Virus record (IMG/VR): IMGVR_UViG_2654587570_000006
Direction: 5' to 3' (one strand)
Length of the DNA: 15,728 nucleotides
Source: a virus
Taxonomy: Duplodnaviria; Heunggongvirae; Uroviricota; Caudoviricetes
Positions 3,001 to 9,000 of this stretch are shown in pieces (the stretch's first letter is position 1; every line of letters begins with the position of its first letter). Position numbers: made by a program.

Positions 3001-6000
3001 CTGGACAGCATGGGCCAATGACGTTCGCACAATGCGGATGCTGGATGGCAGAACTCACAGACAAATTTGTGAAATGTTTGGGCGTCTCCAGCGGGATTCG
3101 TTCTGGGTAAAAAACATCATGAGTCCGGCAAAACTCCGGGAAAAATGGGATGAACTGGTTATCCGCCTGGGGCGTTCGCCTGCGCAGCGTTGCGTGAATC
3201 ACATTTCTGAACCGGACACTGAAATACCGCCGGGATTCAGGGGGTGACGTGTCATGAAAAACATTGCGGCAGTTGGGGTTCTTGAACGTATTCGCAGACT
3301 TGCACCACAGGGGTCGGTTCCACCGTACCGGACGGTGGAGGAGTGGCGGGAATGGCAACTTGCTGAAGGACGAAAACGCAGCGAGGAGATTAACCGCCAG
3401 AATCGCCAGTTGCGGGTGGAAAAAATCCTGAATCGTTCGGGCATCCAGCCTCTGCACAGCAAATGCTCGTTTGCAAATTATCAGGTGCAGAACGACGGGC
3501 AAAAATACGCGCTGAGCCAGGCCAAATCCATAGCTGACGAACTGATGACCGGGTGCACGAATTTTGTGTTCAGCGGTAAAACCGGCACCGGGAAAAATCA
3601 CCTTGCAGCGGCGATGGGCAACCGGCTGATGGTGAAGGGGCGCAGCGTGATTATCGTCACCGTGTCTGACGTCATGAGCGTGTTGCATGACAGCTACGAC
3701 AACGGCAAATCCGGGGAAAAATTTTTACAGGAGCTTTGCGGGGTTGATTTGCTGGTCCTGGATGAAATAGGCGTTCAGCGGGAGACGAAAAACGAGCAGG
3801 TGGTATTGCACCAGATAATTGATCGCCGGACAGCATCACTGTGCAGTGTCGGGATGTTAACAAACCTGAATCATGCCGCAATGAGTACGCTTCTTGGTGA
3901 GAGGATTATGGACCGCATGACCATGAACGGTGGTCGATGGGTGACGTTTAACTGGGATAGCTGGCGTCCAAATGTCAGCAATATGAGGGTTGTGAAGTAA
4001 TTTTGTCCGGAGGAAATTTTAATGGAAACCGTATCTGACGCACTGAAAGCACTGAAAAAAGCCTCTTCACATGTGGTGGCAGCTCGCCTTGGAATCAGTC
4101 GTGAAGAGGCTGTCAACGAGCTGTGGGAACTCAAAAGAAATGGCGTCGTTGATAAAACTGGTCACACCTGGTTTCTGGCTGGCGAAGGTGAATCCCGGGT
4201 AACCGAAGAGCGGCCAGTAAAATCTGAAGCACAGGATATGCTGACCGGGGAGGTCGAACAAAAAGTTACCGCAGACATGATGATTGAGTTTATCGGTCAG
4301 GATGGGGCTAAAACGTGTGAGGAACTGGCGGGTAAGTTCGGTGTCAGTACTCGCAAGGTTGCTTCCACGCTGGCGGTGGTAACCGCAACGGGGCGGCTGG
4401 CACGCGTTAATCAGAACGGTAAATTTCGTTACTGCATGCCGGGCGATAATTTACCAGCAGAGCCGAAAGCCGCGCTGGTAACGGAAAGTGATGGTAAGGC
4501 CTTTCCTCAGCCAGCAGGTGCTGCGTTACCAGGCCGGGAAGCCGCAACACAGGAAGAAATTAAAACAGAAACTGTGGCGGACATTGTGCAGTCGTTGCCA
4601 TCGTTTACCGAAACGCAAGCAGATGAGCTGATTTTTCCGTCCCTGCGCAGGGCAAACCTGGCGCTGCGCAGGGCGAAAAGTGATGTTCAGAAGTGGGAGC
4701 GAGTCTGCGCCGCGCTGCGGGAGCTGAACAAGCACCGGGATATTGTTCGACAGATTACTGATTCTTCCCGCCGTGTTGTATCGGAAAAGTGATTGCCGGA
4801 GGTGCTTATGGCAAAAGTATTTACACAAGAAGAGCGGGAAAAAATTAAAGGGCAGGTTGTTGAGCTAGTACGCCGGAGTGGGCGCGAGACGTTACGGCAA
4901 CTGGAAGCCAAGACAGGTGCGACAAGATATCTGATGAGTGTTCTCGCCAGAGAGCTGGTTGCCAGTGGCGATGTATACAACTCTGGTTACGGGTTATTCC
5001 CGTCTGAACAGGCGCGTAAGGACTGGCAAAACGCCCGCAAAAAACTCTCAAGGGCAAATCTGAAGAAACCATCTGTGGTTGATCCTGACCTTATCTGGCC
5101 ATTACCAGACGGAGAAATACGCCGCTACGACAGGCGTCAAAACATAATCTGTAGCGAGTGCCGGAAGAGCGAAGCTATGCAGCGTGTACTGGCTTTCTAT
5201 CAGGGTAATTTTCAGAAGGTGCTGTTGTGAGCCAAATTAACAATCGGAACTTCGTGAAGAGAAAGCATAATCCAAATCTGAATAATTAAGTTCAGCACTG
5301 TAAATAAAATTTAATCCTTAACTGGAGGTATATCTATGTCAAATACACAGAAAATTATTAACACTGAAAAATATAACGAGTGGGTGAAAAAATTCTCTGA
5401 GCAGATTTTTAAAATTACTGGCGACGAGAATGTGGCAAAAAATGAATTGGAACCGTGGACACCTGAAGGAAACGCACCAAATTATTGCTGGTGGGAGGTT
5501 GATCCGGTTGATGCTGCAAATGAAGCCATGAGTTACCACAACGATTAATGTCGGGAGGCCGCCCGAAAGGGCGGTAAGAAATGACTACATTATTCAGAAA
5601 AGAATATCCGCAAAAAAGTAGGGCGACAGAATTTTTGTTTCTCATTCTGTTTATCGTATTGATGATACCGATATCCCCTCTAATTTTTGTCTGGGCAATC
5701 GGGAAAATAATTGAGCCAGTTACTGAATTGTATAACGACGTGGTATGGGCGTCATTCAACACACTGCACAATAAAATTAATCCGTATAAGGAAAACTGAT
5801 ATGGCAACTTTGACAAAAAAAGAACGGGCATGGTTGAACGAATTACAGGAAGTTCTTGATCGCTGTCCATCACCGAAAAAAATTGGCTTTTACACCATTG
5901 GCGATAAAAGCATTTACCTGTATGACCTACGCCGCATGGATGAAATCATGGAGGCTCTTGATAATCGTTCGTCGATGGATTGGTGTGTTGCTGTTCATGA

Positions 6001-9000
6001 TATGAATGCAGGGTTTGATGAAAAGATTTTGTTCCCCTCATCAGTTGAAAGCACTGCGGGTTAAGGAGTAACACATGACCACTATTACCAAAGAACGTAT
6101 TGAATTGTTCATTAAATTTTCAGGAGGCGGTACTGTGAGTGAAATTAGCTATCAGGCTTCAATTACCGCTGGCATTCGCATCAAAGGAGAGGAGCATGGA
6201 AATAAAACCAGAGGATGAGTTAAGCAATATCGTTTTATTTCCGGTAAAAGAGGATGACCCTCGTAATCAGGTTAATTTTCTTTATGAGCCATCGGAAAGA
6301 CCATATTGTCATCACGCCTCTGTCCGGGTTGACGAAAAAGAGCGTCAGGTCCGCTGTAAAATCTGCGGTGCAGTTGTGGAACCATTTGACTGGATGCTCT
6401 CTGTGGCGAAAAGAGAAACCAGACTGGCAGATGATGTAAGGCTCTTGCGTCAGGAGGAGCGGGAAAGGCGAAAAAATATAGAAAAGCTAATTCAGATTGA
6501 GCGTAACGCGAAAGCGCGGATACGCAGGGCGACAAAATCCAGAACTGAATAATTAAATTTAGCTCTGTTAAAAATTTAATCCTTAACCGGAGGGATTTCT
6601 GCACCCTCAGAACATCAGGAGGCCGCCCGAAAGGGCGGTAGTTAAATGCGAAAGTTTAAAATAATTATTGAAACGGGAATAGCCGGTGGAGATTTCGAGG
6701 ATGAATTCGAAGTGGATGATGATGCGACGCCTGATGAAATACATGACGAAGCAAAAGATATTTTCTTTAACTACTGCAATTACTCATATCACGAAATAAA
6801 AGACGAAGAGGAAGAACAAAATGGCTGATTTTGGTTCAACTAAATACAACGTCGGTTTTGAAGAATGGCATGAACTGTTAATGGACTATGCAGAGTTACG
6901 TGGTGGCAGTGCTGCTGATGCTGAAGCATGGCGTGATGATTATGAAGCAGGAAAAACTCCGGTCGAAGCATATTGTGATGAGTGGGGCGATGAATGAGCG
7001 AGGTTAATTATCAGGAAGGGCATGAAACGGCGGGGCAAGCAAAAACAGTGGCATGGCGATATCGCTACGTGAAAAAAAGGCGTTACGGACTTTCAGGGGA
7101 AGTAGTGGTCTGGTGACTGGAAATATGTACCGAAAAAAGAGGATTGTAACGACAGGCCGAACTATGAAATTCAGGCCTTATTCACTGCCCCGCCAGTCCC
7201 GGTTACATCAGAAGAACTGGTTAAAGCTGTGCACTTTTATGAACAACTAAAATGCGAAAATCCACCAGCATCCGGAAACCTGATTACAGATTCCCAGATA
7301 AGGCAATGAGCTACCTGGCGCAGAACGGGCTGATAAGTATGGGGAATGTTTTACGATGAATATTTAGACTAAAGAGTTTGTAACGCTATGTAAGTGATTT
7401 TTTCTGGTTTAGATATTTATATGTCCGGCTAAATTGAGGTGTGTTTAAATGTTATTGCACATTGATTGTAGGGGGAATAATGAAAAACGCATTGCAGTTT
7501 TTGTTTGTTGCGTTCTGGTTGTTCGCATCATGTATGCCCATCATCTTCACAGCAAGGTATATGGAAAAAGTTGATGTTTTGATATTAATGTTTGGACATA
7601 TAAATGCCCTTTTTTTAGGGGTGTTCATGGCGGTCATGTGCATTGAATACTGGCGGTAAATACAGCGAACGCCATTGGTTTAGTTGGATATTTACTGTGC
7701 CGGACAAAAACGGTTTGCGGGGAAATCTTAGTTAAGTAGAATGACTGCGGGTGCTTGAGGCTATCTGTCTCAGGCATGAACACCAAAAGGCAGATAGAGA
7801 AAAGCCCCAGTTAACATTACGCGTCCTGCAAGACGCTTAACATTAATCTGAGGCCATATCTATGCGACACATAGAGATTAGCCTCTTACGGACCGAAAGG
7901 TCAAGGAGAAGCAGGCTATGAAGCAGCAAAAGGCGATGTTAATCGCCCTGATCGTCATCTGTTTAACCGTCATAGTGACGGCACTGGTAACGAGGAAAGA
8001 CCTCTGCGAGGTACGAATCCGAACCGGCCAGACGGAGGTCGCTGTCTTCACAGCTTACGAACCTGAGGAGTAAGAGACCAGGCGAGGGGGAAATCCCTCG
8101 CCACCTCTGATGAGTCAGGCATCCTCAACGCACCCGCACTTAACCCGCTTCGGCGGGTTTTGTTTTTTCCTGGCATTCTGGTTTACAATTCGCACGTCAG
8201 CCTGAACACCTGACACCTGCTGCGCCAGTAGAGAAAACAGATGGCGCACAAAACCAAATTTCACAATTCTGATACCGACCTTGCCATCCGGCATGGGCGG
8301 CGTTCACACGCATTTAAAACCGACTGGTACCAACACCCACCATGTACTGAAGAACAGGCCGAATGGCTAATTCATAACTACCGCAGACGCGGATACGAGA
8401 TTAAGAAAGCCCTCAGCCTCGATTATCGTCACTGGATAATCTATGTCAGGCTCCCTTATTCCGAACGCCCACCGCGTCCGTCCCGCACATTCCAGCAACG
8501 CATCTGGAGGTAACGTGCGGGTATTACTTCGACCTGTTCCGGTACCGGAACTTGGGCTGGTGGTGCTAAAACCGGGCCGTGAATCCATGCAGGTATTTCA
8601 TAACCCTCGAGTTCTGGTGGAGCCGGAACCGAAAAGCATGCGCGGTCTGCCGTCCGGAGTCGTTCCTGCTGTTCGCCAGCCGCTGGCGGAGGATAAATCA
8701 TTACTGCCATTTTTCAGCGATGAGCGGGTGATTCGTGCTGCTGGTGGTGCTGGTGCATTGTCTGACTGGCTGTTACGCCACATTAAATCCTGCCAGTGGC
8801 CTCATGGTGACTACCATCACAGTGAAACCGTCATACATCGTTACGGTACCGGCGCGATGGTGTTGTGCTGGCACTGCGACAACCAGCTGCGTAACCAGAC
8901 TTCCGAATCACTCGGGCAGCTTGCTCACCAAAACCTGTCAGCATGGATGATTGATGTCATCCGCCACGCAATGAATGGCACGCAGGAGCGGGAATTATCG

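Follow-up and report, generated by a model that had tools for sequence, protein, structure and literature searches.

The DNA analysed here, called the window below, is the whole 15,728-nucleotide (nt) stretch of IMG/VR virus record IMGVR_UViG_2654587570_000006 (Caudoviricetes), read on one strand from 5′ to 3′. It is a lambdoid prophage of Escherichia coli. An identical stretch is present in E. coli strain FDAARGOS_1059, where the annotation runs in the order cro, ydaT, replication genes, DUF1627, DUF977 and a run of small open reading frames (ORFs), with hokD and rusA further downstream. Among the small ORFs lies the element considered here, a short module in which a Shine–Dalgarno (SD) sequence is followed by a GC-rich hairpin and then by the start codon of a small gene. 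The module occurs twice, both times far inside the rightward early operon, at 3.7 and 4.8 kb past the cro stop codon (window position 1840). The parts of the two copies, and the genes behind them, are listed here.

5551–5576, + strand: module copy 1, TCGGGAGG-CCGCCC-GAAA-GGGCGG-TA; direct repeat D5, 25/26 identical to copy 2.
6615–6640, + strand: module copy 2, TCAGGAGG-CCGCCC-GAAA-GGGCGG-TA; direct repeat of copy 1.
5554–5558, + strand: Shine–Dalgarno GGAGG of copy 1, at a linear distance of 22 nt from ATG 5581.
6618–6622, + strand: Shine–Dalgarno GGAGG of copy 2, at a linear distance of 23 nt from ATG 6646.
5559–5564 and 5569–5574, + strand: stem of copy 1, CCGCCC with GGGCGG, loop GAAA at 5565–5568.
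6623–6628 and 6633–6638, + strand: stem of copy 2, loop at 6629–6632.
5558–5575, + strand: predicted hairpin 1, six G-C pairs plus a closing G.U pair and a GAAA tetraloop; −15.5 kcal/mol, probability of an unpaired stem 0.00.
6622–6639, + strand: predicted hairpin 2, the same as hairpin 1.
5575–5580, + strand: spacer of copy 1, TAAGAA (UAAGAA in RNA), A-rich, with no SD.
6639–6645, + strand: spacer of copy 2, TAGTTAA (UAGUUAA in RNA), with no SD.
5581–5799, + strand: DUF4014 gene behind copy 1, 72 amino acids; a coding sequence of the Prokaryotic Genome Annotation Pipeline (PGAP) in the identical E. coli record, with Pfam PF13198 spanning residues 1–72 of 72.
6646–6828, + strand: DUF7167 gene behind copy 2, 60 amino acids; a PGAP coding sequence, with Pfam PF23768 from residue 2.

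An earlier sequence-only reading of the window had described the module as GGAGG, a 6-bp stem, a GAAA loop, 6–7 nt and ATG, and both its coordinates and its parts are borne out. The unit common to the two copies, TC[G/A]GGAGGCCGCCCGAAAGGGCGGTA, is 26 nt long; 25 of these positions are identical and 23 consecutive nucleotides match exactly, and the term “exact duplication” used in that reading was thus a slight overstatement. The sequences flanking the two copies are unrelated on either side, and homology within the window is confined to the 26 nt. The 21-nt core has exactly two occurrences, compared with none in 200 shuffles when up to three mismatches were allowed. As direct repeats, the two copies bound a cassette of 1,064 bp.

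The genes behind the copies had been taken for unrelated small ORFs, and DUF4014 and DUF7167 are indeed unrelated families. The significance of the hairpin depends on where these genes start, since start codons placed elsewhere would remove it from the interval between SD and AUG. The PGAP calls at 5581 and 6646 agree with the starts chosen from sequence, and the Pfam models begin at residue 1 of the DUF4014 protein and residue 2 of the DUF7167 protein. An in-frame stop codon stands immediately 5′ of each ATG (TAA before ATG 6646), and an earlier start for DUF4014 is impossible because of the in-frame TAA directly upstream of ATG 5581. The N-terminus of DUF4014 is kept in diverged homologs that have no hairpin (933W L0067, D6, epsilon15, ES18, g341c and HK225). 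These distant homologs were drawn from phage records, and a protein-based locus search gave only relatives at least 92% identical. In Klebsiella phages, the DUF7167 homologs have an MRKFK/MRRFK N-terminus in common and an ordinary SD. The hairpin-less homologs of both genes carry an ordinary SD 6–8 nt upstream of the start. Together, the PGAP calls, the Pfam starts, the upstream stops and the homolog N-termini place the hairpin between the sole SD and the genuine start codon of each gene.

The linear SD-to-AUG distances had been put at 22–23 nt and measure 22 and 23 nt, and neither spacer holds another SD. Few E. coli genes have an SD centered at more than 15 nt from their start codon (PMC3592434). 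Among 80 close DUF4014 relatives sampled by protein, 61 have the SD-hairpin initiation region, and the other 19 have a canonical AAAGGAGAGTGAT-GTG initiation region coupled to an upstream gene. Both window families are under purifying selection behind the module, with ratios of nonsynonymous to synonymous polymorphism (pN/pS) of 0.10 for DUF7167 and 0.27 for DUF4014 and a pS of about 0.2, which argues that the genes are translated from the module's initiation region.

Prediction of RNA folding for both leaders, in contexts of 120–134 nt, gives a stem pairing probability of about 1.0 in each copy. The final G of GGAGG forms a seventh base pair with the U after the stem, which brings the hairpin to −15.5 kcal/mol (z about −3.5). 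When the hairpin is folded, 5–7 nt are left between stem and AUG in the two window copies. Moreover, deletion on paper of the 16 hairpin bases produces AGGAGGTAAGAAATG and AGGAGGTAGTTAAATG, both of which are canonical initiation regions.

The same layout is known from phage T4. In T4 gene 38, a hairpin reduces the spacing from 22 to 5 nt, and in gene 25 from 27 to 11 nt; mutations in the stems lower translation (PMC3014915). Such sites have been termed split or noncontiguous ribosome-binding sites (RBSs) (PMC7297116). The T4 gene 38 sequence, which was fetched for this comparison, reads UAAGGAG-[AGGGGC UUCG GCCCUU]-CUAAAU-AUG with a hairpin of −14.1 kcal/mol, and the window reads GGAGG-[CCGCCC GAAA GGGCGG]-UAAGAA or UAGUUAA-AUG. 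In both, the SD abuts a GC-rich tetraloop stem (8 bp in T4, 7 bp in the window), the linear SD-AUG distance is alike (22 nt in T4, 22 and 23 nt in the window), and the hairpins are of similar stability (−14.1 and −15.5 kcal/mol) and are followed by an A/U spacer of about 5 nt in T4 and 5–7 nt in the window. The parallel with T4 offered in the sequence-only reading thus extends to the design and to the linear spacing of 22 nt.

There are also differences. The T4 gene 38 hairpin has another sequence, with a UUCG loop, and serves one gene at a single locus, whereas the window module is found in near-identical form before several unrelated gene families, with as many as six copies in a genome, and falls at mosaic junctions. 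Experiments have demonstrated function for T4 gene 38, whereas for the module it is argued by analogy. The T4 gene 26-25 junction is alike in that a hairpin between SD and AUG cuts the spacing from 27 to 11 nt. It differs in that its stem is longer, weaker and irregular, and it occupies one fixed locus with no role as a recombination boundary. The hairpin of this junction is conserved in close relatives only and has therefore been considered evolutionarily young (PMC3014915). The noncontiguous initiation regions of E. coli thrS and rpmE likewise show a ribosome accommodating a stable hairpin in or next to its binding site, but there the hairpin lies upstream of the SD, not between SD and AUG, and is the operator for an autoregulatory protein. 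Taken together, the module has a distant sole SD, a stable self-contained hairpin and an effective spacing within 5–11 nt, and its reading as a split RBS is well supported by this anatomy and by direct comparison with T4 gene 38.

A stable hairpin in an intergenic position could also be an RNase III processing site, as the sequence-only reading had suggested, or an intrinsic terminator. The stem of an RNase III substrate must span about two helical turns (~20 bp), and the 7 bp present here fall far below this length. Termination was considered and rejected, as the stem is followed by UAAGAAAUG and UAGUUAAAUG rather than by a U-tract, and the terminator scan is silent on both strands. The promoter and terminator scan makes no call at either copy, and Rfam searches of 5200–6900, at gathering and permissive thresholds, return no match, only chance-level hits with E > 4. 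Processing by RNase III or termination thus retains next to no probability.

A role in messenger RNA (mRNA) stability or processing fits the hairpin better, though we consider it unlikely. Within the long polycistronic early transcript, the hairpin would either shield the segment upstream of it from 3′-to-5′ exonucleases or protect the new 5′ end once RNase E has cut in the AU-rich leader, and would set the relative abundance of the cassette mRNAs. A very stable GC tetraloop hairpin in an AT-rich intergenic region, without a U-tract and between cistrons of an antiterminated operon, would suit this purpose, and the same stem serves as a terminator hairpin in unrelated phages. Nothing in such a role, however, calls for a position between SD and AUG rather than upstream of the SD, nor for the adjacency to GGAGG and the start distance of 6–11 nt that are conserved across gene families. 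A stability role and a split-RBS role are not exclusive and could be combined.

The hairpin might instead be recognized by a protein. The GCCC-GAAA-GGGC of the module resembles the boxB of lambda nut, in which a GNRA-like purine loop caps a short GC stem (GCCC/GGGC), and many translational operators abut an SD as this hairpin does. It could accordingly be proposed as a boxB-like target of an N-type antiterminator or as the site of a phage translational repressor. The window hairpin differs from boxB in the lack of a boxA, in having a tetraloop rather than a pentaloop, in its variable loop and in its position deep in the operon. A nut site was rejected as a candidate, with no CGCUCUUA-like boxA near either copy and neither copy promoter-proximal; the two one-mismatch boxA hits in the window are below chance expectation, and neither is adjacent to the module. 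In addition, the annotation of the identical prophage record includes no N homolog. Natural copies of the module have the loops GAAA, GGCA, UAAA and AAAA, and this variation argues against loop-specific protein recognition. A protein-binding operator is therefore regarded as highly improbable.

The upstream sides of the module are of two kinds only, the 3′ end of orf70 and an AT-rich leader of about 60 nt. The window contains both, together with associated features.

5336–5548, + strand: orf70, which precedes copy 1; its 3′ end forms one of the two contexts found upstream of the module.
5266–5335, + strand: leader A, AT-rich, without the hairpin module; its plain SD (GGAGG, 7 nt, ATG) serves orf70.
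6553–6614, + strand: leader B, AT-rich, upstream of copy 2; the commonest upstream module context, with repeats D1 and D4 matching 5266–5335.
6589–6608, + strand: small hairpin of leader B, GAGGG (6590–6594) with CCCUC (6604–6608); sequesters an SD-like GGAGGG in predicted folds.
5548–5577, + strand: 9-codon mini-ORF through hairpin 1, encoding MSGGRPKGR; it starts at an ATG that overlaps the stop of orf70 (TAATG) and stops 3 nt before the DUF4014 ATG.

Several gene families are found downstream. Across about 150 copies, the distance from hairpin to start is 6, 7, 9 or 11 nt and is characteristic of the family: 6 nt for DUF4014, 7 for DUF7167, 9 for the M[AT]ELTKE family, 9 for MQEIKE and 11 for a Q-antiterminator homolog. 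The M[AT]ELTKE proteins have no Pfam hit. The orf70 end and the leader are each joined to DUF4014, to DUF7167 and to the M[AT]ELTKE family, a four-gamete pattern. In phage ArgO145, the junctions orf70-module-DUF7167 and leader-module-DUF4014 are the reciprocal of those in the window, and the breakpoints bracket the module. Recombination between the two window copies would yield the orf70-DUF7167 junction that is seen in ArgO145. The existence of all four flank combinations, with breakpoints around the module, gives comparative support to the earlier suggestion of a mobile or recombinogenic cassette. It also supports, from the arrangement of flanks, the view that the module is a mosaic junction and may be the exact point of cassette swaps between E. 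coli prophages.

Short conserved boundary sequences have been proposed to underlie lambdoid mosaicism, in the account given in PMC3029335 of Susskind & Botstein (1978) and Clark et al. (2001). By analogy, the exchange between ArgO145 and the window fits this proposal. As with the lambdoid boundary (linker) sequences, flanks that are otherwise unrelated have a short sequence in common where genes meet, and these flanks occur in every combination. The window boundary sequence differs from those linkers in that it is itself a structured translation-initiation element.

The module is widespread in E. coli. The exact core is present in at least 120 IMG/VR contigs, and a 64-mer comprising leader plus hairpin is found in 2,339 of 5,426 complete E. 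coli genomes (~43%), with up to six copies per genome. In a set of 185,579 species representatives, the exact module is confined to E. coli, Shigella and one 3-kb scaffold of a metagenome-assembled genome (MAG), the last of which is probably contamination. Fourteen sequenced phage records contain it, including ArgO145, several Stx2a phages and Rac-SA53. It is absent from the three K-12 prophages checked, Rac, Qin and DLP12 (e14 was left out), and published K-12 ribosome-profiling (Ribo-seq) and RNA structure-probing (SHAPE-MaP) data are thus unusable for the module. In unrelated phages the stem is also found on its own, for the most part as the stem of a terminator with T-runs behind it, which means that the hairpin alone is generic and that the specific part is the SD-hairpin-TA unit. 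No description of the element was found in the searchable literature under either the hairpin sequence or the names DUF4014 and DUF7167; a preprint on the Pas small RNA (sRNA) proved unrelated to the module.

Module and neighboring prophage DNA are also seen under two unexpected host names. PP818812.1 (Actinobacillus phage vB_Apl-pPE4) carries the module together with DNA 93–97% identical to the window, and the Collinsella MAG scaffold JAIHTM010000290.1 (L338) carries near-identical prophage DNA, module included. The host or bin assignment of both looks doubtful.

Diversity was measured in a fair sample of 65 module copies. Nucleotide diversity (pi) in this sample is 0.008 for GGAG, 0.030 for the 3′ G-arm, 0.077 for the 5′ C-arm and 0.113 for the loop, which makes the GGAG core the least variable part of the module; among all 279 collected copies, GGAG is kept in 277. 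All six core pairs are intact in 60 of the 65 copies. A subset selected by DUF4014 had suggested a module better conserved than the DNA around it, with a pi of 0.005 against a pS of 0.11, and a first leader-only subset was biased to variants. The leader-only search was the source of the natural stem variants. C>U changes, which keep a G.U pair in + strand RNA, are seen in 18 haplotypes and G>A changes in 9, and this excess leans weakly towards a stem in + strand RNA. Only one compensatory double change, from G-C to A-U, is found across 35 haplotypes, and a search aimed at double changes of the pair that closes the loop found only two unrelated high-GC contigs.

Several of the results weigh against a module that is both a split RBS and a recombination boundary. 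Whole-module pi in the fair sample, at 0.071, is not below the 0.053 of the leader next to it, and exceptional sequence conservation is accordingly not claimed. A broken pair is present in about 8% of copies. Covariation is not significant, as the 93% of paired cells among the 35 haplotypes is equalled by 252 of 500 shuffles. The SD of copy 2 (6618–6622) can alternatively pair with the upstream CCCUC of leader B. The Q antiterminator homolog carries a GGAG of its own behind the hairpin, which means that the upstream SD of the module is not always needed, and a few copies have no start codon behind them at all. Finally, the flank pattern puts the exchanges at or beside the module, which need not mean that homology within the module brought them about. 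The earlier claim that folding brings the SD to functional spacing thus holds for the geometry, with 5–7 nt left after the stem; its translational part is put more cautiously here, in view of the covariation result and of the one family with its own SD.

Much of this would be expected if the module were a recombination linker or scar only, which translation tolerates. Weak, SD-less starts would then depend on ribosomal protein S1 and on the unstructured, A-rich spacer; alternatively, the hairpin would be mildly repressive. The assortment of flanks at the module, the resemblance of its diversity to that of the leader, the nonsignificant covariation, the Q homolog's own SD and the copies without a start codon all agree with such a linker. 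A linker alone, however, does not account for GGAG being the most conserved part, nor for a stem-to-AUG distance that stays within 6–11 nt across unrelated genes and equals canonical SD spacing for the two window genes. The geometry moreover agrees with the proven T4 case, and the downstream genes, being under clear purifying selection, must be expressed. A linker or scar without a translational role is possible but, on this balance, doubtful.

We lean, with slightly more belief than doubt, towards the two roles together, those of split RBS and recombination boundary. The module would be a portable SD-plus-hairpin unit of about 26 nt that lambdoid prophages of E. coli and Shigella carry in the accessory regions of their early operons. 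In the mRNA, GGAGG would pair with the 3′ end of 16S rRNA, and the 16-nt GC hairpin would stay folded and be looped out of the path from SD to P site. The A/U-rich stretch of 5–7 nt past the stem would then set the AUG at normal effective spacing. We infer from the T4 analogy that ribosomes initiate across the folded hairpin. In the DNA, the same short conserved sequence would be a linker at which homologous recombination swaps the flanking gene cassettes, by phage Red/RecET-type or host functions; an exonuclease of RecE size is encoded in the identical prophage record. The position of the flanks suggests that crossovers would fall inside the module. A stronger form of this proposal is that the module is a dual-purpose connector: a translation-initiation unit independent of its context, whose hairpin insulates SD and start from upstream sequence, and whose short conserved DNA would allow Red/RecET-type recombinases to plug any cassette that carries it into any early operon; this is a tentative idea that we think rather less probable than its opposite.

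For copy 1 alone, the mini-ORF at 5548–5577 raises the question of a translational coupling relay, in which orf70 ribosomes would restart at TAATG, melt the hairpin by translating the mini-ORF, stop, and reinitiate at the DUF4014 ATG. The mini-ORF is intact in all 36 of 36 copies in the orf70 context, and nearly every copy has a stop codon, TAA or TAG, after its stem. Most copies in the leader context, copy 2 included, lack an in-frame start codon, however, and the relay therefore cannot explain the module in general. An open frame of nine codons ending at this point is also reasonably probable by chance. The mini-ORF is probably incidental and possibly a coupling relay; as an explanation of the module, the relay is very unlikely.

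Other features of the region were noted beside these. An AT-rich leader of about 70 nt is repeated at 5266–5335 and 6533–6600 (+ strand) and opens with the last codons of an upstream gene (CTGAATAA); the gene end at 5266–5285 is a remnant with no ORF. Leader B runs on into the hairpin module, and leader A drives orf70. The alternative pairings of CCCUC in leader B may constitute a decoy or a switch, and one GAGTG/CACTC compensatory variant of its small hairpin is present in IMG/VR. A 39-nt repeat, 77% identical between 5207–5245 and 6115–6153 (+ strand), contains GGAGG, 7 nt and GTG 6139; initiation there would give ORF 6139–6552 a longer and well-placed start in comparison with the PGAP call at ATG 6196.

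The Q homolog was met in the IMG/VR loci L017 and L027, where the module is followed by a 173-residue ORF that matches Pfam PF06530 from residue 62 on. The N-terminal part of ~60 residues opens with MEITKERL, like the M[AT]ELTKE N-termini, which suggests from sequence a mosaic N-terminal fusion. Window ORF 5801–6064 has an N-terminus similar to that of ArgO145 gp11 and no Pfam hit. HNH endonuclease genes adjoin DUF4014 in two phages (L002 3473–3838, ArgO145 gp11; L250 27–404, HK225 gp55), and a homing-type endonuclease beside DUF4014 could add to the mobility of cassettes near the module.

Further downstream, Rfam hits above the gathering score are the sok antitoxin RNA (upstream of hokD), two tRNA genes and the sRNA STnc100, at 7749–7920, 12166–12238, 12339–12412 and 13097–13286. 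A hairpin GGCGAGGGGGAAATCCCTCGCC at 8081–8102 (+ strand) immediately follows the stop codon of hokD; its family shows apparent compensatory variants at about 50 related loci, and it is best read as the 3′ structure of hok mRNA. A second hairpin family in related loci, GGCGRGGGAGWAATCYCYCGCC, was rejected as a relative of the module, being the hokD mRNA 3′ structure. At about 8146–8170 there is a GC hairpin with a T-run behind it, resembling a terminator.

Split RBSs are known from a handful of individually studied genes, and here the design appears as a reusable unit before several unrelated families. The split-RBS design is itself already known, and the module is best filed as a likely example of a portable split RBS that would double as a recombination boundary. 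If this is true, gene finders and RBS calculators that penalize long SD-AUG distances would misjudge the genes behind the module, and the module would be a natural, compact “insulated RBS” part for synthetic biology. The connector form of the proposal, if true, would amount to an integrase-free, integron-like shuffling of accessory genes in E. coli prophages. For the lambdoid phages, the module, if it has both roles, would offer a testable case of boundary-driven mosaicism in which translation is the reason that the boundary sequence is kept.

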